From the NCBI GenBank assembly GCA_015233195.1, contig JADFYE010000010.1, positions 9,869 to 73,868 on the forward strand: 64,000 nt of DNA, in the 5' to 3' direction. Positions 5,199-35,440 of this stretch are shown piece after piece. A program made the translations under genes and the position numbers. The DNA comes from Candidatus Omnitrophota bacterium (GTDB lineage: Bacteria; Omnitrophota; Gorgyraeia; Zapsychrales; Zapsychraceae). Below the pieces are notes generated by a model that saw only the letters and a list, made by a program, of their open reading frames with translations, was not told where the DNA came from and ran no database searches. Position 1 is the stretch's first letter; every line of letters starts with the position of its first letter.

Positions 5199-7412
5199 TT
5201 ATTTCTTCTTTTTTGCAGTATAATCTTCCCAAGCTATAACAATCGAAGATGCCACGAAAATGCTGGAATAAGTACCAAATATAAAACCTACCAATAAACA
5301 AAAAGCGAAAGAATTTAAAACTTCCCCGCCTTTAAAAAACAATGCCAAAACTACTAACGTAGTTGCAACTGATGTCAAAATCGTCCGGCTCAAGGTTTCA
5401 TTAACGCTGACATTAACTAACTGCGCTAAAGGCATTTTTTGTTTCTTAACCATGTTCTCCCGAATACGATCATAGACCACAATAGTATCATTGATCGAAT
5501 AACCTGCAATGGTCATAAGCGCGGTAACGACCAAAAGATCGATCTGGCGACCGCTCATCAACAACACCCCAAATGCCACGATAACGTCGTGGAACAAAGC
5601 AATAACACCGGCTGTAGCAAAATCAAAATGTTTAAATCTAAACCCGATGTAAATCAGAATGCCGACCATGGCAAGGACTATCGCCCAGACTGCAGCTTGA
5701 CGTAAAGCTTTACCAACTACTGGTCCAACTTTTTCAATACGCATAACTTCAAATTTATTATCACTGAAATCTTTTTTAAATATTCCTGACACTAAATTAA
5801 AAGTATCATCAGCAGTACGGATCATGACTGTTTCCGGATTCTTAGCAAATTGCTGAATTACCGCATCCTTAATATTAGCGTCTTTCAATGCTTTACGTAC
5901 CTGATCCGCATTCACTGCTTTTTCAAAACGATATTGCTGGATCTGTCCACCTGAAAAATCAATACCATAAGCAGCGTCACCTTTTTTGAATAACACGACC
6001 AGACTGGTTATAACCAATATGGCGGAAAAACAAATCATAATATAACGAAGCCCGACGAAATTAAAATTCGTATGCTTGAAAAAATTACGCATTTTCAAAG
6101 CTTTGATCCAACCGTTTTCCAAAGCCAAAGAGAATAAATCGCGGCTGACCAAAACTGAAGTGAACAAACTTGCAGCCAACCCGATCGACAAAGTAACTGC
6201 GAAACCTTTGATTGGTCCAGAACCGAACTGGAATAACATAAAAGCAGCAATAAAATTAGTAACGTGAGTATCAATGATGGTCGTCAAAGCGCGTTTAAAC
6301 CCCGCAGTAATCGCGGCGGGTAAAGGTCTGCCATTACTAATCTCCTCGCGAATACGTTCGTTAATAAGGATATTACCGTCAACTGCCATACCTAAAGTCA
6401 AAATAACACCAGCTATACCAGGTAAAGTTAAAGTTAATGGCGAGCCTGGCATTAATTTATTAACTAAACCCATAATCCCAAATAACATTACCAAATTTAT
6501 CAATAAAGCAATGTTAGCAATGATACCTGATTCCCAATAATAAAATAACATGAACAAAAATACTAAAACCCCGCCGATAACTGTAGCAGTGATCCCGTCA
6601 CGAATCGAATCTTTTCCAAGTAAAGGTCCGATAGTGCGTTCTTCTTCGATTTTCATAGGCGCTGGTAAAGCACCAGAACGAAGCGCTAAACTCAAAACTG
6701 ACGCTTCTTCAAAAGTAAAATTACCAGATATACTGGCAGTCCCGCCTAATATCGCTTCTTTAATATTAGGAGCTGAAAGAACTTCACCGTCCATAACAAT
6801 TGCTAATCTGCGGTTAACATTATTCTGAGTCAATATTCCGAAATTCTTTGCGCCTTCAGCATTAAATTTAAGCGAGATACTCGGCTGTCCAAAACTTTGT
6901 GAATTATAATCAACCCTGGCATCAGCTACAGTGTCGCCTTTTAAAGCTACAGCTTTATCTATCAAAACTGGAGGAGCTCCGCCTTCTTTTTTAACATACT
7001 TAATTTCATAACCTTCAGGGATGTTACCTTTTAATGCGTCACTTACTTTGGTAGGATCATCATTTACCAAATGAAATTCCAATTGCGCTACCCGTCCAAT
7101 AATTGATAAAGCTTTTTCACGGTCAGTTACGCCAGGCAACTGAACTAATATTTCATCTTCGCCCTGTCTTTGAATAACTGTTTCACCAACTCCCATACCA
7201 TCAATACGATTACGCAAAATTTCAATCGCCCGTAACACTGCGTCATTTTTTGCATTACCCTCTATCTTAGTAGTATCGACCTGCAAAACTAAATGCATAC
7301 CACCTTTAAGGTCTAAACCTAAGTTAATATGATCTTTTATCGGGAAAGTAAACAATAAAGATACAACAATTATGGCGCCTACCCATAAAAGCCGAACACG
7401 TAAATTCTTCAT
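5199..7412 (-). CDS. secDF: protein translocase subunit SecDF (fused)
   Basis: 737 aa. SecD-like periplasmic domain plus two 6-TM SecD/SecF modules ('GLDLKGGMHLVLQV', 'GIDFSGG', 'DTIVVYDRIREN'). Confidence 0.92.
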   Translation of the reverse strand: MKNLRVRLLWVGAIIVVSLLFTFPIKDHINLGLDLKGGMHLVLQVDTTKIEGNAKNDAVLRAIEILRNRIDGMGVGETVIQRQGEDEILVQLPGVTDREKALSIIGRVAQLEFHLVNDDPTKVSDALKGNIPEGYEIKYVKKEGGAPPVLIDKAVALKGDTVADARVDYNSQSFGQPSISLKFNAEGAKNFGILTQNNVNRRLAIVMDGEVLSAPNIKEAILGGTASISGNFTFEEASVLSLALRSGALPAPMKIEEERTIGPLLGKDSIRDGITATVIGGVLVFLFMLFYYWESGIIANIALLINLVMLFGIMGLVNKLMPGSPLTLTLPGIAGVILTLGMAVDGNILINERIREEISNGRPLPAAITAGFKRALTTIIDTHVTNFIAAFMLFQFGSGPIKGFAVTLSIGLAASLFTSVLVSRDLFSLALENGWIKALKMRNFFKHTNFNFVGLRYIMICFSAILVITSLVVLFKKGDAAYGIDFSGGQIQQYRFEKAVNADQVRKALKDANIKDAVIQQFAKNPETVMIRTADDTFNLVSGIFKKDFSDNKFEVMRIEKVGPVVGKALRQAAVWAIVLAMVGILIYIGFRFKHFDFATAGVIALFHDVIVAFGVLLMSGRQIDLLVVTALMTIAGYSINDTIVVYDRIRENMVKKQKMPLAQLVNVSVNETLSRTILTSVATTLVVLALFFKGGEVLNSFAFCLLVGFIFGTYSSIFVASSIVIAWEDYTAKKKK

Positions 7413-7429
7413 ATTAAAACTCCTTTTGC

Positions 7430-7708
7430 CTATTTCTTAACTACACTAATTATTGCTTCTTTTTCAAATTCGATTTTTACTTTTTCATCCACCCTAAGCA
7501 CCACCGTCTTATCCTTGATCAAAGTTACAACGCCGTGAATACCAGACGAAGTAATGACCTCATCATCTTTTTGCAAATTTTTACGACGAGCTTCTAATTC
7601 TTTTTGTTGTTTATTCTGCGGACGGATCACCAAAAAATAAAATATAAAAAACACAACTACAAACGGGAACATCTGTATTAAAGCATTTCCTGCAGGTTGA
7701 GTAGGCAT
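7430..7708 (-). CDS. yajC: preprotein translocase subunit YajC
   Basis: 92 aa with a single TM. 'RPQNKQQKE' and 'GDEVITSSGIHGVV' are YajC signatures. Adjacent to secDF. Confidence 0.88.
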   Translation of the reverse strand: MPTQPAGNALIQMFPFVVVFFIFYFLVIRPQNKQQKELEARRKNLQKDDEVITSSGIHGVVTLIKDKTVVLRVDEKVKIEFEKEAIISVVKK

Positions 7709-7742
7709 AACTGCTCCTTAATAAAACAAATTTAGTACTGTC

Positions 7743-8000
7743 TTACGCTGCGACAGCTTTTTTATTTTTGTTGACCAGGGCTTTAACAGTATTCGTCATT
7801 CTAGCACCCTTTTTAAGCCATTTTTCAATCTTTTCATGACGAATAAGAACTTCTGCCGGCTTCTTGGTTGGATTATAATGCCCGAGGATTTCTAAATTTT
7901 TTGAATCACGGCTCTGATTCTTGCTCATTGCCACGATACGAAAACAATTAGATAATTTTGTGATTTTACCGATTTTTTGTAAACGAATACTTACTTCCAT
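7743..8000 (-). CDS. rpsP: 30S ribosomal protein S16
   Basis: 'IRLQKIGK...FRIVAM..SRDSK.LEILGHYNP' matches the S16 N-terminal pattern. AGGAGA SD. Confidence 0.9.
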   Translation of the reverse strand: MEVSIRLQKIGKITKLSNCFRIVAMSKNQSRDSKNLEILGHYNPTKKPAEVLIRHEKIEKWLKKGARMTNTVKALVNKNKKAVAA

Positions 8001-8047
8001 TAACTATTTCTCCTGTTTAATTTATATTGGTGATAAATAAGGTCTAA

Positions 8048-8076
8048 ATAATATATTATATATAAGCCATTGTCAA
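8048..8076 (-). promoter_or_regulatory. sigma70-like promoter for rpsP
   Basis: Minus strand TTGACA (8076-8071), 17-nt spacer, TATTAT (8053-8048). Confidence 0.55.
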
Positions 8077-10100
8077 TTTTTAATTTTTAACGTTTTTACT
8101 TTCTTCATTAAATCCAGTAATTCCGAATTATTCGGGTTCATTTTCAAGCCCTGATCAATAGCTTTTAAAGCTTCATCAAAATTGCCAATATGACCCATTA
8201 ATTTACCTATACCAACATAAGCAGGTACAAACGAAGCATCGACTTTAAGTGCTTTATAATAAAAATCAAAAGCTGGCATTAGCATTTTATGAAAAGCACA
8301 AATATTACCAGCTTTTACTAAAATATCTTTATCCGCAGATTCTTTACTTAGTTTCTCAATCCAAAAATTAATTTTATCCTGCTCATGATTTAAAAAAACC
8401 ATACGAAATATATCAAATTTTATATTTTCATCAGTGGGTTCTATTTCTGAAGCCTTTTCATAAAATTTTTGCGCATTAATAAAATCTTTATTTTTTTCAT
8501 AAGCAAGCGCTAAATTCATAGCCAATATTTTATTTTGCTGACCTAATGCATAAGCCCTGAAAAATTCTTTCACAGCTTCTTCAAATTTACCAGATTCACT
8601 ATAAGCATTAGCAAGATTATTCAAGATATCAGGCTGATTAGGAGACAACTCCAAAGCTTTTTTAAAATATTCAACCGCTAAGTTTAAATTGTTTTCTTTC
8701 GCAGCTAATACTCCTAAATTAGATAAATCTTTCCATCGATCAGATAATTTTACCTTAGCAGCCTTTTGAAATAAATCCTGAGCTTTAGAATAATTTTTTT
8801 CTTTAAAATAGGCTGCAGCCTGAAACGAATCTATTAGCTTAAATTTAGCAGTTGCAATTGTATTTCTCCAAAAATCACAATATACAACTTCATCACCCCA
8901 TATAGCATTCATAACAATGGACTGAGTTATTAATGCAAATATTATGCTTAATATCAAGCCGCCAACTAATATTTTTGAATATCGTCTAAACAAATACAAC
9001 AAAACCCAAGCTACAAAAACAAAAAAACCTATAGAATTAAAACAAAACCAATGCGGTTCCGTAACAATACCAAAACTACTGAATGATAAAGAAGCTAAAC
9101 CCGCAATAACAATTCCAAAAATAAAAACTACTGACAAAACCGCATATATTCTTTTATCATTAACTATAAATTTAAAAATAACTAAACATGCAATTAAAAT
9201 AAAAACCAATAAAACACTTATCAATAACCAAATATCTTGCTTTACTACATCCGTCGCCCATATCAATACAACACCTTTAGGATCCAACAACTGCCCCAAA
9301 TACCAAAACCACGCCTTCGATACAGAAGCTAACCACTGATACGGCGATATACCCATATTCTTATACGAACCTAATATCGAACCGCCTACGTTTGAAAATT
9401 TAGCCCGGAATAATAAAAGTATGCCTAATATTAAAAATAAAACAACCGTGTATTTTATGGTTTGTCGAATAGATAAACGATGAGCGATTAAACAAAGACC
9501 TGCCGCATAGAAAGGTAAAAAATATGCAGTTTCATGACATAAACAAGAAATTAAATACAACAACCCTGCACCTAATATTGAAACACGTTTTATGAATTTA
9601 TCAGAAGTTAATATGCTGCGATGGATTAACCATAAAGAAACTACCATTAATATAAACTGCAATATAAGAACATTAGCAGTTATATAATTCACAAAAATTC
9701 CGTTAATCGGATGGATACAAAACAAAACCGTGCTCAAAACTGCAAGCCAATAATCTTTGAGCAAATCAAATAAAAAAAAGAATATAAAAACACAGAGAAG
9801 AAAAAACAGCAGACAGTTTGTTATATGGTAACCTAGCGGATTATATTGAAACGCATTAAAATATAAAACCTGCATCACACTTCTAATCGGACGAAAATGA
9901 GCAGAAACATTATCCTCTGATAACCCATTCCCCGACGAAAAAGCAAAAAATAAATTCTTTATATTATGTGTGTTGTAATTCGAAACAAAATGATTCGCGT
10001 CATCCATCATGAACGCATTATTTAAACTATTAAAATAAGTCAAGAACACTAAAAAAAATAATACCACTAAAAAAAATATTTTATTTTTAGTTTCGATCAT
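8073..10100 (-). CDS. GT-C (PMT/TMTC-like) membrane glycosyltransferase with C-terminal TPR domain, paralog 1
   Basis: About 400 aa polytopic N-terminus with a loop-1 'MMDD' acidic motif, 'HPINGIFVNYITANV' and 'CHETAYFLPFY'. C-terminal TPR repeats. Confidence 0.7.
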   Translation of the reverse strand: MIETKNKIFFLVVLFFLVFLTYFNSLNNAFMMDDANHFVSNYNTHNIKNLFFAFSSGNGLSEDNVSAHFRPIRSVMQVLYFNAFQYNPLGYHITNCLLFFLLCVFIFFFLFDLLKDYWLAVLSTVLFCIHPINGIFVNYITANVLILQFILMVVSLWLIHRSILTSDKFIKRVSILGAGLLYLISCLCHETAYFLPFYAAGLCLIAHRLSIRQTIKYTVVLFLILGILLLFRAKFSNVGGSILGSYKNMGISPYQWLASVSKAWFWYLGQLLDPKGVVLIWATDVVKQDIWLLISVLLVFILIACLVIFKFIVNDKRIYAVLSVVFIFGIVIAGLASLSFSSFGIVTEPHWFCFNSIGFFVFVAWVLLYLFRRYSKILVGGLILSIIFALITQSIVMNAIWGDEVVYCDFWRNTIATAKFKLIDSFQAAAYFKEKNYSKAQDLFQKAAKVKLSDRWKDLSNLGVLAAKENNLNLAVEYFKKALELSPNQPDILNNLANAYSESGKFEEAVKEFFRAYALGQQNKILAMNLALAYEKNKDFINAQKFYEKASEIEPTDENIKFDIFRMVFLNHEQDKINFWIEKLSKESADKDILVKAGNICAFHKMLMPAFDFYYKALKVDASFVPAYVGIGKLMGHIGNFDEALKAIDQGLKMNPNNSELLDLMKKVKTLKIKN

Positions 10101-10104
10101 TAAA

Positions 10105-12144
10105 TTACCTTTTTAATTCTTTAGCCTGCTTAATCAACAATTCAAACTCTTGGAGATTATTCGTAAATTTTTCTCCCTCACGCCAAACTTTGATCGCATC
10201 ATCAAAACGATTCATATTACCAAGTAACTTTCCTAATTCCATATACACTCTAAAAAACTTTGGATCAACAGTAATAGCTTTATGATAAAAATCTAAAGCA
10301 TCCACAACATAACCAGACTTAGCCAACAGACTGCCAACTGATGTAAGTACGTCAGCAGAACGAAGCTTACTCAATTGAAGCATAAAACTTTTTGCTTTCT
10401 GACTATATCCATCAACTCTTAAATAACAATCCAATAAATTTATTTTGACTTTATCTTGTGATGGATCAACATCAATAACCACCTCATAAAGCGAGGCTGC
10501 CTCAAAAAAATTTTTTTCATTATAATAAACTTGGGCAAGTAATATTTTAGGTTGAATCCAAAAAGGATTAAAATGAATAGCTTCTAAACAGTATTTTTCC
10601 GCTTTTATCAAATCATTCTTTTTGAAATATAAATATCCTATATTTGTATTAATTATTGAAGACTGGGGATTAACCGCATTTGCTTTTTCAAAAAATTCTC
10701 CAGCCTTATCAAATTCATTCCGTTTAATATTAATCAAACCAAGGTTATTATATACCTGCCAATCAACACGGGAACCGTGTAATGACGCAAAATAAAATTT
10801 TTCTGCGTTTTCTATATCATTTTTATCTTGATATACTAATGCCTTATAAAAATCTATTGAAGCTATATTTTTATCTATATTTTGTGACCAATAATCCAAA
10901 TATCTTAAGGGATCTCCCCAAAAATAATTATTTATATGGGCTGCCCACATAAGGCTAAATATAATTGTTAAAATCAACCCTGAAACAACATATTTATTTG
11001 ATTTTTCAAATAATCCACATAAAAATAATGCCAATAAAAAGAAAAACCCTAACGAATTAAAAATTATCCAATGCGGTTCAATCATTACACCATCAATAGG
11101 ATTATAAAATGCCGGTAGTAAAATTACACAAATACTGAACAAAAAAATAAAACCTGCCCATGCAGCTATAAAGTTTTTACGCTTATAAAACCCAAAACAT
11201 ATTAATACAACCGCAAAAATGAAAATTATAAATAATAAACTTCTTAACTCTAAATAATTTGTTACAGCTCTTGTATTCCAGATAAGTACAATACCTTGAG
11301 GATTACACAACTTACTCAAATACCAAAACCAAACCTTTGATAAAACCGCCACATAAGAAAGAAAACCTATTCCTTGATTAGCAACTTTATCTAACACGCT
11401 TATTTTCAAGTCCGCATAAAAAAATCTAAAAAGAATAAATATTGATAAAACAATCCATAAACCTAAAGTTATTTTAAAAGCACTCCCAAAACTTTTCCTT
11501 CGTACAATGATTAAAAATCCTATAATATAAAATGGTAAGAAATAACTTGTTTCATGACACAAGCATGTAAAAATAAACAAAATTACTCCACAAATATGCC
11601 AAAGCCAAGTATTACTTTTTTCGTCCTTATTCGCAAAACATAACATGGTCAATATCATTAAAATGATTTGAACAGTATACACGTTAGCCGTTAAATAATT
11701 GACCAATAATCCATTTATTGGGTGAATAATAAAAATGATAGCGGTTAAAAACGAAACTACCTTATTTTTACTTAAATAGAACCAAAAATAAAATATAATT
11801 AGTGCACATAACCAGAGCAAAACCATATTAAAAATTCGCAAACTTTCTTTATTCAAATGAAATAATTGGTAAGCTACTGCTGGAGTTAAATGCGCAAGCG
11901 GACGATAATAAACCGCCCTTGACCGATCATCAAGATTCAAATTTTTATTTATATCAGGAATAAACTGTAAATAAAAATTTTGAACATTACGTATCTGATA
12001 ATTATCAGTTATCAGAGTATCATCAATCAAAAACTCATTATGAATACTATTAAAATAAGTAGCAAATACAAATCCCAATAATACCAAAGCTGAATATATT
12101 TTATTTCGAATAATAGCTGATACTAAATTTTGAATAAATATCAT
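10105..12144 (-). CDS. GT-C (PMT/TMTC-like) membrane glycosyltransferase with C-terminal TPR domain, paralog 2
   Basis: Tandem paralog of 8073..10100, sharing 'YFNSI.NEF.IDD', 'HPINGLLVNYLTANV', 'CHETSYFLPFY' and 'EPHW..FNS.GFF'. TPR tail. Confidence 0.7.
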   Translation of the reverse strand: MIFIQNLVSAIIRNKIYSALVLLGFVFATYFNSIHNEFLIDDTLITDNYQIRNVQNFYLQFIPDINKNLNLDDRSRAVYYRPLAHLTPAVAYQLFHLNKESLRIFNMVLLWLCALIIFYFWFYLSKNKVVSFLTAIIFIIHPINGLLVNYLTANVYTVQIILMILTMLCFANKDEKSNTWLWHICGVILFIFTCLCHETSYFLPFYIIGFLIIVRRKSFGSAFKITLGLWIVLSIFILFRFFYADLKISVLDKVANQGIGFLSYVAVLSKVWFWYLSKLCNPQGIVLIWNTRAVTNYLELRSLLFIIFIFAVVLICFGFYKRKNFIAAWAGFIFLFSICVILLPAFYNPIDGVMIEPHWIIFNSLGFFFLLALFLCGLFEKSNKYVVSGLILTIIFSLMWAAHINNYFWGDPLRYLDYWSQNIDKNIASIDFYKALVYQDKNDIENAEKFYFASLHGSRVDWQVYNNLGLINIKRNEFDKAGEFFEKANAVNPQSSIINTNIGYLYFKKNDLIKAEKYCLEAIHFNPFWIQPKILLAQVYYNEKNFFEAASLYEVVIDVDPSQDKVKINLLDCYLRVDGYSQKAKSFMLQLSKLRSADVLTSVGSLLAKSGYVVDALDFYHKAITVDPKFFRVYMELGKLLGNMNRFDDAIKVWREGEKFTNNLQEFELLIKQAKELKR

Positions 12145-12150
12145 ATTAAG

Positions 12151-12501
12151 CTATACCGGAATAGTTCTATAAAAACACGATCTTTGGTTAGTGTGGCATG
12201 CAGCATCAACTTGTTCTACTTTAATTAAAAGACAGTCGCAGTCACAATCAAAACGCACTTCTTTGACATACTGAAAATGTCCGGAAGTCATACCCTTTAC
12301 CCAAAATTCTTGTCTGGATCTCGACCAGTAACAGGCTTTTTTATCCGTTAAAGTTCGGCGCAAAGATTCCTGATTCATCCATGCCATCATCAACACTTCA
12401 TTATTCTGCACATCCTGCACAATAACAGGAATAAGACCATCTTTACCATATTTAAGTTGATCAATATTATTTATAGTAACTTGTATTTCTTCAGGTTTCA
12501 T
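12151..12501 (-). CDS. hisI: phosphoribosyl-AMP cyclohydrolase (no HisE domain)
   Basis: 'GLIPVIVQD', '[10 protein letters not shown]', '[16 protein letters not shown]' and '[13 protein letters not shown]...ACHT'. Confidence 0.92.
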
Positions 12502-13253
12502 GCGCGTATCCCAATCCCTTCTTTTTTTAAATATTGTTTCACCTGCCCAATCGTTAATTCTCCATAATGAAAAACTGAAGCAGCCAAAGCCGCGTCAGCA
12601 CTAGTAAGTTTAAACACTTGGGCAAAATCATCTAACTTACCTGCCCCGCCTGAAGCGATAACTGGAATATTTACTGCCCGGCAAACTGCGTCAGTTAAAG
12701 CAATATCATACCCATCTTTAGTTCCGTCAGCATCCATACTAGTCAATAAAATCTCACCTGCGCCTAATTCTTCAACCTGCTTTGCCCACATAACCGCGTT
12801 TTTTCCAGTAGGTATGCGACCGCCATTAATAAATACTTCCCATTTATCACCCACCCTTTTGCCGTCTATAGCGACCACAATACACTGACTTCCAAATTTC
12901 TCAGCAGCTTGGCGAACTAATTCAGGATTTTTTATTGCAGCAGAATTGATAGAAACTTTATCAGTTCCCGCATTTAAAAGTCTGCGTATATCTTCAAGTG
13001 TATTTATCCCCCCACCTACAGTGAGCGGCATAAATACTTTTTCTGCAGTACGATTAACCACATCAATAATAATCGAACGTTTTTCATGGCTGGCTGTAAT
13101 ATCCAAGAATACTATCTCATCAGCACCTGCGCGGTCATAACCTTCTGCCACGTCTACAGGATCTCCAGCGTCGCGTAAATTAACAAAATTAACGCCCTTA
13201 ACCACTCGTCCGTCTTTAACATCCAAACATGGAATTATTCTTTTAGTTAACAT
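12498..13253 (-). CDS. hisF: imidazole glycerol phosphate synthase cyclase subunit
   Basis: '[17 protein letters not shown]', '[13 protein letters not shown]' and 'VIASGGAG'. Confidence 0.95.
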
Positions 13254-13254
13254 A

Positions 13255-14754
13255 TTATTTTAAAATATCAAACAGCCATTCTTGTTTATTATTATGAAGA
13301 TAATTCATAAATTTTTCATCAGTTTTAGTGTCTGTCCACACAATTTTTTTAAACACCTCATCGGATAAAATAAATTTAGCTAGAAAACTTAATTTACGAA
13401 CCGAATATCGCAATACCCTCGCTTCGCCATAAATATTATTATCTTTTATATCTATTGGTATACCTTTATACGCGTGATTAACATAAGCTGAAACATTTTT
13501 ATTTAAACTCACAAATAATATTTGAAGCTCTTTACTTTCTGCATGTATAGCAACGGCATTGTCATATCTATCCAACGCGCCTATTGCAACCATAACAAAA
13601 CACAACATCACAACTACCATTGTTTTAGTTTTTTCTACAAACTGATTTGATTCTTTCAAATATACATCAGCAAAAAACGCGTAACAAACAGCTAATAACA
13701 TAACTGGAAAAACATAATACCTGGGCAACCATAAACGATGTTCTCCCCAAGAAGTTCTAAATATAAATATAATTAGCGTACTGAATAATCCTACAAAGAC
13801 AAAAAACCAAATTTTATTCCAATCAATTTTATTAGAATAATTTTTTATTATAAATATAGCTCCGTAAAAATAACCAAACGAAAAATACTGAAAAGATAAC
13901 AACATTGGGATAACACTAAAAAGAAGAAATCTGCATAAATAATAAAAAGACTGAGAATAATTAGCTATTTTATCTAAAGACCCTCCTCTGCCGATATAGT
14001 GTTCTGAAAAAAATATATTATGCACATTCATAGCATACACCACGATTCCAATCAAAGAACCCATAACATAATATACGAGCAATGACTTATCATTTTTCCT
14101 AACATCTTTCGGAATACAAAGAAAATGAAACGCTATAACATAAAAAATCATAAACATGCCTAACGCGAAAGTAAGCATACTGAGTAAAAATGACAGCATC
14201 CAAACCACACGCCAAATCCAATTAGGACGTAAAGCATTTTTATATTGAGCAAAAAATACTAATAAAACGCCTAATAGACAATATAAAATATGCGCGTCAG
14301 TAAAAATAAAAACCGCTCTATCAAAAAGATTTGAAGCTGCAAATATTGAACATCCCAACAGCGCCCCATTTGATGAAACCTTTAGTAGCTTTAACAAATG
14401 ATATAAAACAACAATTACCCCAATCGTAACCAAAAATGTTAGTAAATGAAAAAATTCAGTGTAAAGCCAAAAATTTTTGTAAGAAAAAAGATATAAATAC
14501 TTCATTATTGGTATTACATGTTCATTGTGCGCGCTGAATATCCACCCCCATTCAGTATTATCCCGTATAGAGCTAACCATTTTGTCTAAATAGTCGATAT
14601 CATCAACCATATAAGGAATATGAATGGCTGGTAAAACTGAGTAAAGGTAAACTGAAGATATAATTAACAACATAAATGTATAAATGCGTTCAGTATTTTG
14701 CTTTGCCATTAAAAATACTAAAACACCAATCAGCGAGAAAACACAAAAATTCAT
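13255..14754 (-). CDS. polytopic membrane protein, GT-C-like (no TPR tail), embedded in the his operon
   Basis: 499 aa with more than 10 hydrophobic segments. Early-loop '[10 protein letters not shown]' acidic motif. 1-nt gaps to both hisA and hisF. Confidence 0.5.
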
Positions 14755-14755
14755 A

Positions 14756-15475
14756 TTAAATTTCCTTTAATTTTTTCAAATCAATCTTGCCTTCATAAAT
14801 CGCTTTGCCGGTAATAACCCCGACCACACCTTTTGATTCCAAAGTTTTGATCTGCTTTATATCGTCTATACATGACACCCCACCTGAAGCAATAATATTT
14901 ACTCCTTGCACGCTTTCTGCCAATGCTTTCAAAGCCGCAATGTTCGGACCAGTCAGCATACCGTCACGAGCAATATCAGTAAAAATAATCCATTTAACGC
15001 CTATCGTCTGCAATTTTTTCACAAAATCTGTTGCAATTATATCTGAGGTTTCTGCCCAGCCATGCTTAGCCACCATGCCATTATGACAATCTAAACTGAC
15101 TGCGATTTTGTCGCCCCAAATAGCAATTATCTCCCGTAAAAAATCCAGATCTTGAATAACTTTAGTCCCTAAAATAACCCGGCTAATACCACCGTCAATC
15201 AAACTCTTTATATCATCTTTGGTCCGTATCCCGCCGCCCATCTCAATTGGGATCTTAACTGTCTTTGCAATATCAAGAATGACCTTTTTATTACGCATCA
15301 CTCCGTATTTAGCGCCGTCAAGATCAACTACATGCAGCCACTTGGCGCCTTCTTTTTCCAAATACTGTGCCATAACCAATGGGTCGCGGCTGTATTCAGT
15401 GACCTGGTCGAATTTGCCTTGAGTAAGGCGTACGACTTTGCCGTCTTTAATATCTATCGCTGGGAAAATTATCAT
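14756..15475 (-). CDS. hisA: ProFAR isomerase
   Basis: 'IIFPAIDIKDGKVVRL.QG', 'LHVVDLDGA' and 'IASGGVS' typical of HisA. Confidence 0.93.
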   Translation of the reverse strand: MIIFPAIDIKDGKVVRLTQGKFDQVTEYSRDPLVMAQYLEKEGAKWLHVVDLDGAKYGVMRNKKVILDIAKTVKIPIEMGGGIRTKDDIKSLIDGGISRVILGTKVIQDLDFLREIIAIWGDKIAVSLDCHNGMVAKHGWAETSDIIATDFVKKLQTIGVKWIIFTDIARDGMLTGPNIAALKALAESVQGVNIIASGGVSCIDDIKQIKTLESKGVVGVITGKAIYEGKIDLKKLKEI

Positions 15476-15510
15476 GCATATCCTATCTTATATACATTTT
15501 TCAATTTGAT

Positions 15511-15938
15511 CCCTTCTACCCTTTGGGGAGAAGGTTAGGATGAGGGGATAATTTCTTCAATTTTATTTTCAATAACTTCGTAAACCCCATCCATGTTTAT
15601 CAGAACATCGTTATTTGCAAACCGCAAAATTTTTATGCCTTGAGATTCTAAATATTTACTTCGAGTTTTATCTTTACGCTCACCAATATCTTCATAATGC
15701 TGACCCCCATCTATTTCAATTGCTAATTTAATTGATGGAGCATAAAAATCGATTATGTAATTCCCGATTGAAAATTGTCTCCTAAATTTAATATTTTTAA
15801 TTTGTTGATTTCTAACATACAACCAAATTAATTTTTCAGCGTCTGTTTGCTCTTTACGAAGATCTCGACAATAATCAATATTCGGTCTTTTTGGCATTAC
15901 CCCTCACCCTAACCCTCTCCCCAGAGGCTGGAGAGGGG
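15511..15938 (-). mobile_element. DUF559 endonuclease gene bracketed by inverted ~38-nt hairpin repeats (cassette-like insertion in the his operon)
   Basis: Left arm 15511-15547 is the reverse complement of right arm 15900-15938 at most positions. The gene fills the interval almost exactly. The same repeat occurs solo elsewhere. Confidence 0.45.
15535..15897 (-). CDS. DUF559 (Vsr/restriction-endonuclease-fold) protein
   Basis: 'TDAEKLIW..VRN', 'FRRQFSIGNYIIDFY', 'LAIEIDGGQH' and 'GIKILRFANNDV' match the DUF559 pattern. Confidence 0.85.
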   Translation of the reverse strand: MPKRPNIDYCRDLRKEQTDAEKLIWLYVRNQQIKNIKFRRQFSIGNYIIDFYAPSIKLAIEIDGGQHYEDIGERKDKTRSKYLESQGIKILRFANNDVLINMDGVYEVIENKIEEIIPSS

Positions 15939-15961
15939 ACTTTCCCATCTATCTATACTCT

Positions 15962-16564
15962 CTACTCTATACTAATAAAGTTTTTAATTATTTCCAACCC
16001 TACTTCCTGGCTTTTTTCTGGGTGGAATTGGACTCCAAAAATATTATTCGAACATATCGACGAGCAATAATCTATACCATAATTAGTGGTTGTTGCAATA
16101 ATACTCTGATCCTTAGGTTTTACATAATACGAATGACAAAAATATACATTCGACTGATCTGGAATATTTTTAAAAATAGCGCAATTCTTATTAGAAATAT
16201 TTAACTGATTCCATCCCATTTGCGGCACTTTTAATTTAGTAAATTTTTCAACGCTACCTTTTAATATTCCCAGCCCCTCAACTTTACCGCCTTCATAACC
16301 AACTTCAAACAATATCTGAAATCCCAAGCATATACCAAAAAACGGTTTATTCTCGTTGACCACATTTTTTATCACAGGAATAAGCCCGAGTTCAGTTAAT
16401 TTTTCCATAGCTGGACGCATCGCGCCTACCCCGGGAAGCACGATTTTTTGAGCAGCTTTAATATCACTGGCTTTTTGCGTAACTACAGTTTCTGCTCCGG
16501 CTTTTTCAAAAGCCTTTTGCACGCTGCGTAAATTACCCATGCCATAGTCGATGATTGCAATCAT
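15962..16564 (-). CDS. hisH: imidazole glycerol phosphate synthase glutaminase subunit
   Basis: 'IAIIDYGMGNLRSV', 'LPGVGA', catalytic 'GICLGFQ' and 'FGVQFHPEKS'. Confidence 0.94.
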   Translation of the reverse strand: MIAIIDYGMGNLRSVQKAFEKAGAETVVTQKASDIKAAQKIVLPGVGAMRPAMEKLTELGLIPVIKNVVNENKPFFGICLGFQILFEVGYEGGKVEGLGILKGSVEKFTKLKVPQMGWNQLNISNKNCAIFKNIPDQSNVYFCHSYYVKPKDQSIIATTTNYGIDYCSSICSNNIFGVQFHPEKSQEVGLEIIKNFISIE

Positions 16565-16567
16565 GTG

Positions 16568-17179
16568 TTAATCAATTATACCTTTTGTCGATGGAACAGA
16601 ATCTGGTCTTGCTGGATTGATCCGGGTTGCTTCATGCAAAGCCAAACCCAAGGCTTTAAACGCAGCCTCTAAGTTGGTATGCAGATCTTCGCTAGTTCCC
16701 TCGATCTTTACGTTAACAGTAGCGCCGATATTATGCGCGAAAGATTCAAGGAAATGTTCAAGGTAAGCCATAGTATAGCCATCTTCATTTTTAATATTCA
16801 CTTTATCCATATTTTCAATGGTCAAAGTCAAATAACCCCGACCGCTAATATCAACCACTGCCCGTCCTAAAGTAGACTCCATCGGAGCATATGCAGAACC
16901 AAAACGTTTAATCCCTTGCATTTCACCCAAAGCTTTTTTAAACAATTTGCCTAACACTATACCAATATCTTCATTAGTATGATGGATATCAATTTCCAAA
17001 TCAGCTTTCTTCACTGCCAATTCCAAATCAAAACAAGCATGGAACGCGAACAGATCCAACATATGGTCGAGCAAACCAATATTAGTCTTGATCTTACTCT
17101 TGCCCCGCCCATCAATATTTATTGACGCGGTAATTTCAGTTTCTTTACTTTTTCGCTCCAGCTGCGCTTTTCGTTCCAT
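16568..17179 (-). CDS. hisB: imidazoleglycerol-phosphate dehydratase
   Basis: 'HMLD', 'HHTNEDIGI' and 'HNIGA/HFLESF' IGPD motifs. The track start 17227 is a GTG inside the repeat (translated 'PSPASGERARVRG'). ATG 17179 ('MERKAQLERK') is preferred. Confidence 0.92.
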   Translation of the reverse strand: MERKAQLERKSKETEITASINIDGRGKSKIKTNIGLLDHMLDLFAFHACFDLELAVKKADLEIDIHHTNEDIGIVLGKLFKKALGEMQGIKRFGSAYAPMESTLGRAVVDISGRGYLTLTIENMDKVNIKNEDGYTMAYLEHFLESFAHNIGATVNVKIEGTSEDLHTNLEAAFKALGLALHEATRINPARPDSVPSTKGIID

Positions 17180-17183
17180 ATTT

Positions 17184-17221
17184 CCCCTCACCCTTGCCCT
17201 CTCCCCAGAGGCTGGAGAGGG
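17184..17221. repeat. 38-nt CU/GA hairpin repeat (cccctcaccc..ccctctcc..ggagaggg)
   Basis: One of 7 copies: 15511-15547, 15900-15938, 17184-17221, 21835-21871, 21897-21933, 41684-41722 and 50543-50575. Confidence 0.9.
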
Positions 17222-17246
17222 AATCACTTTAATTTATTATTTAAAA

Positions 17247-17423
17247 ACAAATTTTTAAAAATTAAAAGGCGCAGGTATTTAAGCGGACGTTGATAATTCG
17301 AGCGGGCACGGTTTGGACGAGTTTTATCGTCCAAGAGCGAGAATTATCTTCGAGCGTAGTTTAGTCTCGCAGGGACTAGCAAGCGTTCCGCGAAATACCG
17401 AAGACTTTTATCTAAAAATTTGT
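17247..17423. repeat. ~170-nt branched-hairpin intergenic element, copy 1 (candidate structured RNA or MITE)
   Basis: Terminal inverted repeats acaaattttt/aaaaatttgt. Nested helices aaaag.c/g.ctttt, ggtattt/aaatacc, gcgga/tccgc and gataattc/gaattatc. Two tip hairpins. Confidence 0.85.
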
Positions 17424-17438
17424 TAATTATATCACTTT

Positions 17439-18662
17439 TTACTTAAATCTAACCTTGACCGATTCAGAATGTTTCTCCAATCCTTCCAAACTCGCAATCT
17501 GAATTATAGCATCTTTTACCTTTTCCAAAGCCTTTTTTGAATACGAAATAACATGACTCTTTTTCATAAAATGATCAGTGCCTAGACCAGAAAAATACTT
17601 TGCAGATCCTAAAGTCGGCAGAACATGACTGGGTCCTGCAGCATAATCCCCTAAAGCTGTTGGACTGTACGGTCCCAAAAATATCGCCCCAGCATTTATT
17701 ATACGTTTAGCAATAACATTTGGATTATTAGTCATAATTTCTAAATGTTCAGGCGCTATTTTATTAGCAATATCAGCAGCTTCCTCAATATTTTTCGCTA
17801 ATACACCATATCCAGCCGGCACACGATTACGCATTTGTTTCAATAATTGTTTTGAAGTTGAAATCAAAATTGCTAATCCACCCAAATGCTCTATCTGCCC
17901 TTCCATATCTGCAGCAATAAAATCCGGATTAGAATGACGGTTAGCAATGATCGCTAACTCCGACGGTCCAGCTAACATATCAATATCCACAAACCCAAAA
18001 ACCTGACGTTTCGCTTCAGTAACATACATATTACCCGGACCAACAATTTTATGCACCCTAGGTATAGTCTTAGTACCTAAAGCCAAAGCCGCGATCGCTT
18101 GCGCTCCTCCAACTTTATAAATTTCATTCACCTTTAATAAATTCGCAACAGCCAATACATAAGGATTAACATGACCATTTTTATTCGGTGGAGTCATGAT
18201 AACAATACGTTTAACACCTGCGACTTTAGCTGGGATTACTGTCATATATACCGTCGACACTAACGGAGCAGTGCCTGCTGGAATATAAATACCAACCGCG
18301 TCCAAAGGTAAAATTGTTTCTCTTAATATAACCCCTTCTTCAGCTTTAACAAAACATGGACTCTGTTTATGAGTCTTGTAGAACGTAGTCACGTTCTTAA
18401 TTATCATTTTTAAATTTTCAACAAAATCAGTCGTGATATTCTGGAACGCAGCGCTTATCTCGCTTTCAGGCACCCGCAAATCTTTGGCTGTCAGCTTAAC
18501 TCCGTCGAACTTACGAGTATATTTAATCACCGCGTCATCGCCCTGCAAACGCACATCTTCGATTATTTGACGGACTTTCTCGCCCAAGCTTCTTTTATGT
18601 ACTTGAACATCACGGTTATAAATATCTTGTAAACTTTTTCCGGTTTGAGTCAGAATTTTCAT
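17439..18662 (-). CDS. hisD: histidinol dehydrogenase
   Basis: 407 aa. 'GGAQAIAALA.GT', 'IVGPGN.YV..AK', 'AGPSE' and 'EH' motifs. Confidence 0.93.
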   Translation of the reverse strand: MKILTQTGKSLQDIYNRDVQVHKRSLGEKVRQIIEDVRLQGDDAVIKYTRKFDGVKLTAKDLRVPESEISAAFQNITTDFVENLKMIIKNVTTFYKTHKQSPCFVKAEEGVILRETILPLDAVGIYIPAGTAPLVSTVYMTVIPAKVAGVKRIVIMTPPNKNGHVNPYVLAVANLLKVNEIYKVGGAQAIAALALGTKTIPRVHKIVGPGNMYVTEAKRQVFGFVDIDMLAGPSELAIIANRHSNPDFIAADMEGQIEHLGGLAILISTSKQLLKQMRNRVPAGYGVLAKNIEEAADIANKIAPEHLEIMTNNPNVIAKRIINAGAIFLGPYSPTALGDYAAGPSHVLPTLGSAKYFSGLGTDHFMKKSHVISYSKKALEKVKDAIIQIASLEGLEKHSESVKVRFK

Positions 18663-18681
18663 ATATTTGCTCGTTTAATTT

Positions 18682-18714
18682 TATTTGGGCACGAAGTATC
18701 GTGCCCCTACGAAT
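18682..18714. repeat. GGGCAC hairpin repeat, copy 2
   Basis: gggcacgaagtatcgtgccc at 18687-18706. The conserved 'cctacg' tail contains the alaS stop codon. Confidence 0.85.
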
Positions 18715-21376: not shown

Positions 21377-21828
21377 ATTTGGTCAATTACTTTCTTGATC
21401 GACGAGAAACCAAAACCCCGTCGTAATAAAAAATTATAAATACGTTGTTTGAATTTATCATTATCGGAGTGAACGCCATGCTGCAGTTTACGGTCTACTA
21501 ATGAACGGATCATTGCAAGTTCATCGTATTCCTCGCTGGCAAAGCCTAAAGTCTTTTTTAAAATTTCTTTATCAATACCCTTATCGAGCAATTCTCGTCT
21601 GATCCGGTTTATGCCAAAAGGCTTATTTAAACGCGAATTCACCCATGCCTTAGCAAAATCCTCATCATTGACCAAACCGGTGTTCTTAAAATATTCAATA
21701 GTCTGGTCTATAACTGATAGATCAAATTTTTTCTCTTTAAGTTTTGCCTTTAACTCGTATTCACTCCGCGGCCGATAATTCAAGAGCCGGTAAACTGCGT
21801 TTTTTGCTGACGATAAATCATTTTTCAT
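21373..21828 (-). CDS. recX: recombination regulator RecX
   Basis: 151 aa helical repeat protein ('YLNYRPRSEYEL..KL', 'FGINRIRRELLDKGI') between recA and alaS. Confidence 0.8.
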   Translation of the reverse strand: MKNDLSSAKNAVYRLLNYRPRSEYELKAKLKEKKFDLSVIDQTIEYFKNTGLVNDEDFAKAWVNSRLNKPFGINRIRRELLDKGIDKEILKKTLGFASEEYDELAMIRSLVDRKLQHGVHSDNDKFKQRIYNFLLRRGFGFSSIKKVIDQI

Positions 21829-21834
21829 TTTTAT

Positions 21835-21933
21835 CTCTTCTCCCCTCCGGGGAGAAGATTAAGATGAGGGGTTTTAATAATTTTTATTTTTTAATTCCCC
21901 TCACCCTGCCCTCTCCCCATAGGTTGGAGAGGG
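21835..21933. repeat. inverted pair of the 38-nt hairpin repeat with a 25-nt AT-only spacer (gene-less counterpart of the DUF559 cassette arms)
   Basis: 21835-21871 (ctcttctcccctccggggagaagattaagatgagggg) and 21897-21933 (cccctcaccctgccctctccccataggttggagaggg) have the same relative orientation as the arms at 15511 and 15900. Confidence 0.85.
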
Positions 21934-21934
21934 T

Positions 21935-22951: not shown

Positions 22952-22998
22952 AGTAACATCCTTTCTTATCCTGGGGGTGTATTGGGAAAGTGTGAAGA

Positions 22999-23027
22999 AT
23001 TATACCCCACTGAAAATTTGTTGTCAA
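22999..23027 (-). promoter_or_regulatory. consensus sigma70-type promoter for recA
   Basis: Minus strand TTGACA (23027-23022), 17 nt, TATAAT (23004-22999). Confidence 0.65.
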
Positions 23028-23118
23028 TCAATTCGATTTTCGTCCAACTTTCGACTAAAAAATATTAATTTTTTGATATTTTATAGCATAAATTAAATAT
23101 AACTTTTATAATGCCTTT

Positions 23119-24873: not shown

Positions 24874-24877
24874 AAAA

Positions 24878-26485: not shown

Positions 26486-26490
26486 AAATT

Positions 26491-27809: not shown

Positions 27810-27835
27810 TATTATAAATCCTAATATTTTTTTAA

Positions 27836-28743: not shown

Positions 28744-28764
28744 AACATTTTTAATCCAACCATA

Positions 28765-29190: not shown

Positions 29191-29204
29191 TAAATCACTT
29201 ACTT

Positions 29205-29242
29205 TTTTTAAAAAAAGGGAGGGTAAAACCCTCCCTTTTTAA
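29205..29242 (-). terminator. Rho-independent terminator after the major pilin gene
   Basis: aaaagggaggg-(t)aaaa-ccctccctttt hairpin with T/A runs on both sides (bidirectional). Confidence 0.75.
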
Positions 29243-29252
29243 TTAAGCAGTA

Positions 29253-31006: not shown

Positions 31007-31017
31007 TTTTAAACTCC

Positions 31018-34304: not shown

Positions 34305-34370
34305 ATTCTCTCCTGTTTTTAAAGTGCCCCCCGGCCCTTATTCACTTAAAAAACTATTAAACCAAAAAAT

Positions 34371-35436: not shown

Positions 35437-35440
35437 AAGT

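Follow-up and report, generated by a model that had tools for sequence, protein, structure and literature searches.

Four membrane proteins (A, B, C, and D) encoded in a 64,000-nt stretch of DNA from an uncultured Omnitrophota bacterium (GCA_015233195.1, JADFYE010000010.1, positions 9,869 to 73,868 of the forward strand; hereafter the window) are, by a modest balance of the evidence, GT-C(A)-fold glycosyltransferases of the inner membrane with TPR-selected protein acceptors. In the same reading, a fifth protein (E) is their cousin, and pilins are the likeliest acceptors of C and D. Paralogy, fold, topology, motif conservation, distribution, and synteny were established in this analysis, and the catalysis, donor sugar, and acceptors of A–D are proposed by analogy.

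All five ORFs of a preliminary description of this DNA are present. B (10105..12144, minus strand, 679 aa) consists of a GT-C membrane domain (residues 1–425, nt 10870..12144) and a tail of about seven periplasmic TPRs (nt 10105..10869). A (8073..10100, minus strand, 675 aa) has the same architecture, with the membrane domain at nt 8850..10100 and the TPR tail at nt 8073..8849. The two are tandem paralogs, as had been proposed; they are 33% identical over their full length (E = 6e-110), and 4 nt separate the stop codon of B from the start codon of A. C (23119..24873, plus strand, 584 aa), which belongs to the A/B clade but is divergent, and D (24878..26485, minus strand, 535 aa), a canonical bacterial TMTC-like GT-C protein with about three TPRs, form a convergent pair beside the pilus cluster with 4 nt between their stop codons. 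Both belong to the same superfamily as A and B (A and C, 23% identity, E = 5e-27; A and D, 21% identity, E = 8e-10). A protein identical to B is named 'glycosyltransferase family 39 protein' by NCBI (PGAP). A and B are flanked by hisI and rpsP, and the closest relative (locus L003) keeps this placement; therefore, conserved adjacency in Omnitrophota need not mean functional coupling, and the position of A and B is uninformative on function.

None of A, B, C, and D passed the threshold of a GT-C model in Pfam or NCBIfam. B scored 22.9 bits against PMT_2, under the gathering threshold of 26.1 bits; PMT_2 gave no match for A, C, or D, and TMTC_DUF1736 gave none for any of the four. The TPR-free profile of the A/B/C type (A2) was aligned with the D-type clade (A6) over 392 columns (hhalign probability 99.94%, E = 5.8e-37). 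Six of the 14 TPR-tailed A6 members matched PMT_2 and one matched TMTC_DUF1736, and the TPR-free profile also retrieved TPR-tailed proteins named 'protein O-mannosyl-transferase' by JGI.

The membrane domain of B was modeled with AlphaFold (pLDDT 91, pTM 0.91) and compared with the PDB by Foldseek. The best 25 matches were all GT-C enzymes (probability 0.89–1.00), with modest E-values of 7e-4 to 7e-2. The matches include STT3 (8b6l_I, E = 6.8e-4), yeast OST (8agc_A, TMq 0.52), and Pmt4 (9i5k_A, TMq 0.51), together with PglB (5ogl_A), AglB (7e9s_A), ArnT (5f15), Pmt1/2 (6p25), AftA, DPY19, and EmbB. Every non-GT-C match had a probability below 0.2 and a TMq below 0.2, and no O-antigen ligase, polymerase, or SEDS protein was among the 50 structural matches listed. 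For this predicted structure, the confident matches are GT-C(A) glycosyltransferases only. Profile searches of the PDB sequences with the membrane domain gave no match. The family assignment suggested in the preliminary description was thus reached through structure and profile alignment, but not through a Pfam or NCBIfam GT-C threshold passed by A–D themselves. The opposite outcome that it had named, assignment to a ligase, a polymerase, or another non-glycosyltransferase family, was also examined, and the result favored a glycosyltransferase.

Hydropathy and the models give about 11 TM helices within a membrane domain of ~410–425 aa. According to the helix boundaries of the models, the DD pair lies in the first outward loop, and the DD, YRP, HPIN, HET, and EPHW motifs and the TPR tail share one side of the membrane. 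The PMT/TMTC-type layout recognized earlier is borne out by these features, which TMTC and TfpW share, as is the arrangement of a polytopic domain of ~400 aa followed by C-terminal TPRs in A–D, with a short and weak tail in C. TPR_1/TPR_2 match the tails of A, B, and D strongly (E = 1e-19 to 1e-26), whereas the tail of C is weak and gets past the threshold of TPR_8 only (26.5 versus 25.7 bits).

The acidic and HP motifs quoted in the preliminary description were found in all four proteins: FMMDD and HPIN in A, FLIDD and HPIN in B, FMVDD and HPYN in C, and SGLDD and HPMH in D. The catalytic-type pair in the first periplasmic loop of B is Asp41–Asp42 (12019..12024; 9999..10004 in A). It is followed by YYRP (residues 79–82, 11899..11910; HFRP in A, 9888..9899), which corresponds to the YRP of TMTC motif M2 (SHKSYRP). 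The second loop carries the clade-specific HPING (residues 141–145, 11710..11724; 9699..9713 in A) and then VNYLTAN, and HPING..VNY stands where the canonical HPxHxE...ERKD, with the RxD of TMTC motif M3, would be. In CHET (residues 196–199, 11548..11559; 9528..9539 in A), His197 aligns with the phosphate-binding Lys of M4 (KET), and in EPHW of the fifth periplasmic loop (residues 356–359, 11068..11079; 9048..9059 in A), His358 aligns with the Arg of (D/E)RxxY (M7). All of these sites are on the minus strand. Among the 65 clade members, DD is retained in 60, (Y/F)RP in 61, HPIN in 60, NY in 58, and EPHW in 52. The A/B/C clade therefore keeps the catalytic DD and YRP and has its own donor-site set, namely HPINGxxVNY, Lys to His (HET), and Arg to His (EPHW). 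A, B, and C all lack RxD (M3), DW (M5), the M4 Lys, and the M7 Arg. This replacement of donor phosphate- and sugar-site residues as a set suggests a different donor or metal chemistry and not decay.

C reads DD, HYEP, and HPYNA..QHITFN, and it has Q-A-I at M4 and EPYW at M7. Because both of the substituted histidines are lost, C may be inactive. D contains DD, NYQP, HPMHVESVVWVSERKD, SKPT, and DRFTY. It has K-P-T and not K-E-T, so that the proposed metal-binding Glu is missing, and DW of M5 is missing from D as well.

E (13255..14754, minus strand, 499 aa) was rightly described as a TPR-less relative, although a remote one. BLAST detected no similarity between E and A, B, C, or D, but the profile of its family aligns with the A/B profile over 362 columns with DD in register (hhalign probability 98.2%, E = 3.9e-14). 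The DD pair is at residues 51–52 and an RY pair at 345–346. The gene is inserted between hisA and hisF, and clustering at 50% leaves only 49 representatives of its family.

The A/B/C clade was detected at 51 loci in 41 species-representative genomes, was found here only in Omnitrophota-type MAGs, and frequently occurs in tandem arrays of two to four copies. It is a lineage-specific variant of a known enzyme type. Four such enzymes and a relative do lie within 26 kb, which had been called striking; multiple copies are typical of the lineage, and the number is not an oddity of this genome.

Five prepilin- or pseudopilin-like genes (27219..29669, minus strand) encode Ser/Thr-rich proteins with a prepilin N-methylation motif, and two of the five small ORFs exceed the Pfam threshold for this motif. 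They are candidate acceptors. The pilus/T2SS-like machinery lies upstream of them (29771..36985, minus strand) and includes a PilC/GspF-like gene, a PilB/GspE-like ATPase gene, a secretin, small ORFs, and PilM/N-like genes; homologs in related loci are 37–64% identical. D ends the co-directional run of the pilus cluster, rsmE, and D, and rsmE (26491..27222) separates it from the pilins. The Ser/Thr richness noted previously is real: Ser and Thr make up 17–25% of the pilins, twice the background of 10.9% in 31 other proteins of the window. Such richness is widespread among pilins, and this composition is not specific evidence. A search for lipid-linked donor synthesis genes, which had been recommended, found neither a gene for a polyprenyl-phosphate sugar synthase or a flippase nor a sugar-nucleotide gene within the window.

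Family members come directly after the prepilin genes in secretin–PilB–PilC clusters of about 10 other divergent Omnitrophota genomes (AlaS 50–63% and RsmE 41–47% identical to those of the window). The order secretin-pilB-pilC-prepilins-(Peptidase_C1)-GT-C was observed in L006, L012, L017, L020, L022, L028, L035, L040, and L043, and in part in L019, L044, and L046. At least three branches of the tree contribute GT-C genes to this position. The nearest relatives of C occupy the second and third places in tandem arrays that follow pilus operons (L020 and L025). Among the 150 nearest neighbor ORFs, N_methyl prepilins tie for the commonest Pfam family (eight members), and glycan-related neighbors are polyprenyl_synt (seven), Epimerase (four), YfhO (four), PMT_2 (four), RmlD (three), and GDP_Man_Dehyd (two). 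The order pilus–GT-C–rsmE–recA–alaS–his could be merely an inherited backbone. The pilin O-glycosylation hypothesis gains real support of a contextual kind from this synteny; A and B, at whose coordinates it had been noted, lie away from the pilins.

In the proposed mechanism, each of A–D spans the membrane with 11 TM helices from a cytoplasmic N-terminus and presents, on the periplasmic side, the DD pair in the first loop and a C-terminal TPR superhelix. If these enzymes work as PMT, TMTC, and TfpW do, a sugar would be taken from a polyprenyl-phosphate-linked donor at the periplasmic face and passed to Ser/Thr of exported proteins gripped by the TPR domain. The family duplicates readily in tandem, and one of its conserved genomic slots is the 3' end of the secretin–PilB–PilC–prepilin operon. 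Because of this slot, pilins or pseudopilins are most likely the targets of the paralogs at the pilus position, which are D and C here.

A less probable explanation is that the proteins are active GT-C enzymes with a non-protein acceptor, such as lipid A/LPS core, peptidoglycan, a teichoic-acid-like polymer, or exopolysaccharide, and that the TPRs merely dock to envelope machinery. ArnT, Emb/Aft, and YfhO are models for lipid or glycan decoration by such enzymes. ArnT, AftA, and EmbB are among the structural matches of B, and YfhO-family, polyprenyl synthetase, Epimerase, RmlD, and GDP-mannose dehydratase genes are recurrent neighbors. The altered donor-site residues indicate that the clade acts differently from PMT/TMTC, and A and B have no protein-substrate context. 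However, a C-terminal TPR domain on the catalytic side pairs with protein acceptors in the characterized GT-C enzymes TMTC and TfpW, prepilin genes are the most recurrent functional neighbors, and the window contains no LPS or polysaccharide cluster.

It is distinctly improbable that some or all of the paralogs, most plausibly C, are non-catalytic TPR scaffolds or pilotins (PilF/PilW-like) or inactive heterodimer partners of the Pmt1-Pmt2 type. Neither M4 (Q-A/E) nor M7 (EP(Y/N)W) retains its basic or His residue in C and its two nearest relatives, two of these three proteins have DE in place of DD, and the genes occur in adjacent pairs or arrays. PMTs are described as working as dimers (PMC7759382). 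The TPR parts weakly match the PilW model TIGR02521 (53–57 bits), but this is generic TPR similarity far under the 154-bit cut-off. Moreover, DD, YRP, HPIN, HET, and EPHW are kept in 80–92% of members, including A, B, and most of the clade, which would be unexpected for a pure scaffold, and D retains the canonical motif set. An O-antigen ligase or polymerase (Wzy_C/WaaL/PglL/TfpO class, GT-C(B)-like) is highly improbable. The best-known O-oligosaccharyltransferases of pilins, PglL and TfpO, likewise combine a polytopic membrane part with a periplasmic domain; however, a first-loop DD followed by HP...(E)RK, K(E)T, and (D/E)RxxY is the motif order of the PMT/TMTC/ArnT type. The ligase or polymerase identity was not supported, with no Wzy_C or ligase match in Pfam/NCBIfam and the confident structural matches all in GT-C(A).

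Compared with known systems, the favored glycosyltransferases share with PglL/TfpO (PilO) a polytopic inner-membrane nature, and those Wzy_C enzymes glycosylate pilins in the periplasm, with tfpO downstream of pilA; they differ in fold class and motifs, and there was neither a Wzy_C match nor a structural one. ArnT (GT83), which transfers aminoarabinose to lipid A and was the best template for TMTC modeling, has the GT-C(A) fold and takes its sugar from an undecaprenyl-phosphate donor in the bacterial periplasm, but it has no TPR tail, its acceptor is a lipid, and its structural match to B (TMq 0.32) is weaker than that of OST or Pmt4. The PMT family (GT39; yeast Pmt1/2/4 and mycobacterial/actinobacterial Pmt; Pfam PMT and PMT_2) shares the GT-C(A) fold (9i5k_A, 6p25), the acidic pair in loop 1, and the weak PMT_2 similarity of B, whereas A–D have a TPR tail in place of the MIR (beta-trefoil) domain.

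TMTC1–4 are metazoan ER protein O-mannosyltransferases (CAZy GT105, Pfam TMTC_DUF1736), and the bacterial 'TMTC-like' homologues are uncharacterized. The acceptors of TMTC, which bears its C-terminal TPR tail on the catalytic side, are cadherins (PMC7801869). A–D resemble TMTC in having 11 TM helices and a lumenal or periplasmic C-terminal TPR domain; their first loop shares the DD of M1 and the YRP segment of M2, and TM3 ends in an HP motif. D also shows RxD (ERKD), (D)RxxY, and the M4 Lys. In contrast, A, B, and C have NY(I/L)TA for M3 and His for both the M4 Lys and the M7 Arg, and the bacterial donor would be a polyprenyl-phosphate sugar and not dolichyl-phosphate mannose.

TfpW, the pilin D-arabinofuranosyltransferase of Pseudomonas aeruginosa group IV strains (Pa5196/PA7), was cited as a GT-C precedent for pilin modification, and the literature bears this out: it is a 646-aa protein with 11 TM helices, a DDX motif, and a periplasmic TPR domain, it is encoded immediately downstream of pilA, and pilin arabinosylation requires it (bioRxiv 10.1101/2020.04.19.049825). 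Unlike tfpW, which is a single gene, the Omnitrophota genes form arrays of two to four paralogs; A and B are away from the pilins, D is parted from them by rsmE, and D-Araf (DprE1/2-type) donor genes are absent here. By description, however, TfpW is like A and B: it is ~650 aa long with 11 predicted TM helices starting from a cytoplasmic N-terminus, its first periplasmic loop bears DDX, and its TPR domain in the periplasm is large. Relatives of A, B, and C likewise follow prepilin genes in L006, L017, L022, L040, and other loci.

The five membrane-protein ORFs of the window were found where the preliminary description had placed them. A (8073..10100, minus strand) and B (10105..12144, minus strand) are indeed tandem paralogs; they are co-directional, lie 4 nt apart, and have a full-length identity of 33% (E=6e-110). 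C (23119..24873, plus strand) and D (24878..26485, minus strand) form the described convergent pair, with their stop codons 4 nt apart. BLAST also detected similarity of A to C (E=5e-27) and to D (E=8e-10), and the DD and HP motifs quoted for these four paralogs were confirmed in the sequence. TPR tails had been claimed for all of them; the Pfam matches were strong for A, B, and D and only marginal for C. An NCBI protein 100% identical to B is annotated as "glycosyltransferase family 39 protein", while most members of the clade (A/B/C-type proteins with HPINGxxVNY) are now annotated merely as "tetratricopeptide repeat protein". The GC content of the GT-C genes is 28–30% against 36–39%, with a positive AT skew (window 8001..12000 and 24001..26000), which fits a membrane protein composition rich in Phe, Ile, Leu, Asn, and Lys.

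E (13255..14754, minus strand, 499 aa) had been described as a related membrane protein without TPRs. It has no BLAST similarity to A–D, but its profile aligned with that of A/B in hhalign (98.2%) with the DD pairs in register; E is therefore a remote relative. This comparison was possible because an exhaustive search found 49 representatives of the E family among 1.84 billion cluster representatives. A word-indexed search had given a single homologue, and the status of an "orphan" was rejected.

The full-length AlphaFold model of B has a pLDDT of 92.8. A Foldseek search with this model returned only TPR proteins such as OGT, CTPR, and SPY and was uninformative about the membrane domain. Because the TPR proteins swamped the search, residues 1–425 were predicted (pLDDT 91.0, pTM 0.91) and searched against the PDB separately. 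The top 25 matches were all GT-C enzymes with probabilities of 0.89–1.0, including STT3/OST, PglB, AglB, Pmt4, Pmt1/2, ArnT, AftA, DPY19, and EmbB; the query-normalized TM-scores reached 0.54, and matches outside GT-C had probabilities below 0.2. Judged by this model, the membrane domain of B has the structural similarity expected of the GT-C(A) fold superfamily. The acidic first extracytoplasmic loop of the superfamily is present as DD in A, B, C, and D and as D51 D52 in E, and the DD pair is invariant across the alignments A1 and A2. According to the helix boundaries of the models, there are 11 TM helices, and the conserved motifs and the TPR tail are all on the same, periplasmic, side. The models and the TPR matches in Pfam thus give the layout of TMTC, with 11 TM helices and a C-terminal TPR domain on the side of the catalytic loops.

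Family models were much less informative. When the membrane domains of A–D were compared with Pfam, NCBIfam, and PDB sequences, the sole match was that of B to PMT_2, which was below the threshold (22.9 bits versus a cut-off of 26.1 bits); A, C, and D gave none. TMTC_DUF1736 was not matched by any of the four, even with the membrane domains alone at E values up to 10. A MIR (beta-trefoil) domain was not found in Pfam searches, and the tail in the model is an all-helical TPR domain instead. These membrane domains are beyond the sensitivity of single-sequence and family-HMM methods. The profile A2, built from 17 sequences of the A/B/C type without the TPRs, retrieved 73 proteins, every one with a TPR tail; some of them have precomputed PMT_2 or TMTC_DUF1736 matches, and some are named "protein O-mannosyl-transferase" by JGI. 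A second profile (A6, 14 members) was made from D and TPR-tailed proteins of the PMT_2/TMTC_DUF1736 type; six of its members match PMT_2 and one matches TMTC_DUF1736. The TMTC_DUF1736 match (6.8e-7) is that of P0042 alone, a distant relative in the clade of D. A PDB profile search with A6 gave TPR matches only. A6 and A2 were aligned by hhalign with 99.94% probability over 392 columns (E=5.8e-37). Homology to the PMT family is transitive only, via the A6 clade.

The proposed PMT/TMTC-type layout agrees with the exclusively GT-C structural matches of the B model, the A2–A6 homology, and the location of the TPR tail on one side of an 11-TM domain. An O-antigen ligase or polymerase (Wzy_C; WaaL, PglL, and TfpO), which the preliminary description had named as the assignment that would speak against a glycosyltransferase of this type, was rejected. 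There was no such match in Pfam or NCBIfam, and among the Foldseek matches listed there was neither an O-antigen ligase nor a polymerase nor a SEDS protein; the GT-C reading therefore stands. A–D belong to the GT-C(A) superfamily and, by analogy, would work like TMTC/PMT/TfpW-type enzymes.

The motifs of TMTC are M1 DD, M2 SHKSYRP, M3 RxD, M4 KE(T/Q)xxT, M5 DW, M6 PxxP, and M7 ERxxY (PMC7801869). In a comparison over M1–M5 and M7, none of A–D has the full set. M1 is present in all four, whose M2 is incomplete (FRP in A, YRP in B, Y-E-P in C, and Y-Q-P in D). M3 is found only in D (ERKD). At M4, A and B have H-E-T, C has Q-A-I, and D has K-P-T. M5 was not found in A, B, C, or D, and M7 appears as DRFTY in D, EPHW in A and B, and EPYW in C. 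D and the PMT_2-labelled bacterial proteins have in common DD, Y-x-P-L, HPxHVESVAW(V/I)xERKD, (S/A)K, and (A)DR(F/Y)xY. Therefore, D is a canonical bacterial TMTC-like protein despite K-P-T in place of K-E-T, and although it matches neither DUF1736 nor PMT_2. Judged by motifs and profiles, A, B, and C fall outside TMTC proper, having no DUF1736 match, M3, M4, M5, or M7, and they also fall outside GT39, being below the PMT/PMT_2 threshold and having no MIR domain.

DD and (Y/F)RP are retained in A and B, as they are in almost every relative that was found by the pattern HPINGxx[VI]NY. The A/B clade has HPINGxxVNY(I/L)TA where the canonical proteins have HPxHxE...RxD, H-E-T for K-E-T, and E-P-H-W at the canonical D-R-(F/Y). 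In both MAFFT and hhalign, H197 of B is aligned with the Lys of M4 and H358 with the Arg of M7. Such exchanges could reflect either decay of the active site or its re-tooling. The alternative motif set is strongly conserved in the clade (DD in 60, (Y/F)RP in 61, HPIN in 60, NY in 58, and EPHW in 52 of 65 members), which argues for a functional, re-tooled site and not for decay. C groups with its two nearest relatives in a sub-branch where both histidines are lost, with Q at M4 and EP(Y/N)W at M7, and DE replaces DD in two of these three proteins. Judging by these residues, C may lack activity or serve as a partner subunit. The clade is a natural experiment on which residues of a GT-C active site tolerate exchange.

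A scan for the clade motif in one genome per GTDB species (185,579 species) gave 51 loci in 41 genomes. The titles of these genomes read Omnitrophota/Omnitrophica, "uncultured Planctomycetales/Planctomycetia" (third-party TPA MAGs), and, in one case, "bacterium"; the clade was seen only in Omnitrophota-type genomes, with the lineage judged from these titles. Among these loci (numbered with an L), tandem copies number two in L003, L025, L041, and L047, three in L004 and L010, and four in L020. The four copies of the window, which had been called striking, are real; however, the tandem arrays in many loci make copy number a trait of the lineage and not of the window. The closest relative by synteny is L003 (AlaS 79% identical), which has the order hisI-GT-C-GT-C-rpsP-yajC-secDF in common with the window. 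Its two copies are both A-like (52–54% identical to A, 60% to each other, and 32–34% to B), and the copies at L003:7890-12010 and window 8073..12144 cannot be matched one to one as orthologs. This points to recurrent duplication, replacement, or gene conversion at the hisI/rpsP site. Polytopic proteins inside the GT-C arrays at L022:13024-14556 and L007:12788-13219 have an "HDD" first-loop motif and no Pfam match, and they may be further TPR-less GT-C relatives like E.

The window has a GC content of ~36–38% and is densely packed, with nearly all genes on the minus strand. It contains housekeeping operons (his, arg, dap, secDF, recA, alaS, uvrA, and tolQR) and one type IV pilus/T2SS-like cluster. 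In a promoter and terminator scan of 7400..27300, the counts equaled the shuffled expectation, which leaves gene spacing alone as operon evidence. The promoter-like count of the region is not above chance; within it, the sigma-70 consensus (TTGACA, 17 nt, TATAAT) is matched perfectly upstream of recA (22999..23027, minus strand) and at 11/12 upstream of rpsP, where the match overlaps the end of A (8048..8076, minus strand). Two inserted genes interrupt the his operon: hisA and hisF are separated by E, and hisH and hisA by a DUF559 endonuclease-like gene (15535..15897); in L003, hisH, hisA, hisF, and hisI are contiguous without insertions. Elsewhere, a 568-aa protein (46876..48582, minus strand) has a membrane N-terminus of ~430 aa, with weak ICMT/PEMT/DUF1295-like matches at residues 320–398, fused to a C-terminal HPPK (FolK) domain; such an architecture is unusual in an enzyme of the folate pathway. 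A 100-aa lysine-rich protein (44855..45157, minus strand) contains the internally duplicated sequence KVG(I/L)KK(E/Q)AGFLYF(V/I)DKDGDISCA and ends with a KKPAKKAAKK tail.

The ORFs at 27219..29669 have the prepilin N-methylation motif, and the pilins next to C and D are Ser/Thr-rich as described (17–25% Ser+Thr versus a background of 10.9%). In L006, L012, L017, L020, L022, L028, L035, L040, and L043, a family member follows the prepilin genes on the same strand in a secretin-PilB-PilC cluster, and L019, L044, and L046 have a partial arrangement. In several loci, rsmE-recA-recX-alaS-his comes next after the pilus and GT-C genes. The backbone of the window (pilins, rsmE, the convergent D and C, and then recA-recX-alaS-his) is the same; thus, C and D occupy the pilus-linked position. 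The pilus-linked genomes are well diverged from it, with identities to the window of 61–64% in PilB, 50–63% in AlaS, and 41–47% in RsmE. A rough NJ tree places the GT-C genes of the pilus position on at least three branches (the main "pilus" branch, L006/L017, and a deep D-like branch). Among the 150 nearest neighbor ORFs of all loci, prepilin N_methyl and HemW-type radical SAM were tied first (8 each), followed by polyprenyl synthetase (7), Peptidase_C1 and DUF2059 (5 each), and Epimerase, PFK, YfhO, and PMT_2 (4 each). The position directly downstream of a pilin gene, which is that of tfpW, is held by family members in L006, L017, L022, L040, and others; in the window, D is one gene (rsmE) off the last pilin-like gene, and A and B lie between hisI and rpsP, a context uninformative as to function. 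Some adjacencies conserved in the lineage, such as hisI-GT-C-rpsP and rsmE-recA, have no functional meaning, and the pilus linkage may therefore partly be inherited gene order. Glycosylation of pilins or pseudopilins by the paralogs at the pilus locus nevertheless has good contextual support.

A papain-type cysteine peptidase of ~246 aa (Peptidase_C1; L012:9189-9926, L020:9193-9933, L025:23-760, L028:9246-9986, L035:3907-4686, and L043:6915-7652) is conserved in six loci, where its gene separates the last prepilin gene from the GT-C gene; the window has none. This peptidase may be part of the same pilus-modification module.

Genes for the synthesis of a lipid-linked donor, which the preliminary description had suggested looking for, were not found within the window; arg, dap, his, panC, folK, uvrA, tolQR, and similar genes are present instead. 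The window also has no homologues of the HemW, polyprenyl synthetase, YfhO, and Peptidase_C1 neighbors of other loci. Polyprenyl synthetase neighbors the family in seven related loci, which is only suggestive as a hint of a polyprenyl-phosphate sugar donor. The clade has a second conserved context, at ~8.7–13.1 kb of each locus, in which a HemW-like radical SAM gene is immediately upstream (L001, L002, L004, L008, L014, L018, L027, and L030). In all of these except L004, the polyprenyl synthetase gene is convergent and immediately downstream, often with a DUF2059 protein next. YfhO-family (GT-C-like) membrane proteins recur nearby.

In the mechanism that we propose, the enzymes would receive the sugar on the periplasmic side of the membrane from a polyprenyl-phosphate carrier, and the loop-1 aspartates would act on the acceptor hydroxyl or on a metal. 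The TPR tail would present exported proteins, pilins being first among the candidates, and the K-to-H and R-to-H exchanges may alter the handling of the donor or metal. Omnitrophota are small cells, often host-associated, and the phylum is largely uncultured and known almost solely from metagenomes. It is conceivable, although we consider it unlikely, that they evolved their own multi-paralog system of periplasmic protein glycosylation, with a re-tooled GT-C site in which His replaces the donor-phosphate Lys/Arg, with type IV pilus or pseudopilus subunits as targets, and with arrays possibly forming heterodimers with inactive C-type partners, thereby diversifying a glycan coat of the pilus for host attachment or phage evasion. 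A clade with an altered but conserved donor-site signature, which current Pfam models miss, is now defined; it expands in tandem and has been attached repeatedly to the pilus operon. Together, these features make pilin O-glycosylation a concrete hypothesis. This is a sound gain in annotation that overturns no concept and introduces no new principle, and the activity itself is something we infer.

TPR-tailed GT-C enzymes are widespread in bacteria. In the literature searched, TfpW was the only characterized bacterial example, and beyond it nothing specific was found on this clade, its pilus linkage in Omnitrophota, or bacterial TMTC-like enzymes. TfpW (646 aa) combines 11 TM helices and a DDX motif with a TPR domain in the periplasm; its gene directly follows pilA, and it is needed for the arabinosylation of pilin (bioRxiv 10.1101/2020.04.19.049825). 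The window proteins resemble it in their 11 TM helices, periplasmic TPR domain, and first-loop DDX. They resemble TMTC in having the conserved motifs and the TPR tail on one side, as described for that family (PMC7801869), and differ from the PMT family, in which a MIR domain is expected, by their TPR tail. Whereas Lys and Arg hold the donor phosphate in enzymes of the PMT/TMTC/OST type, the A/B clade has His at these positions.
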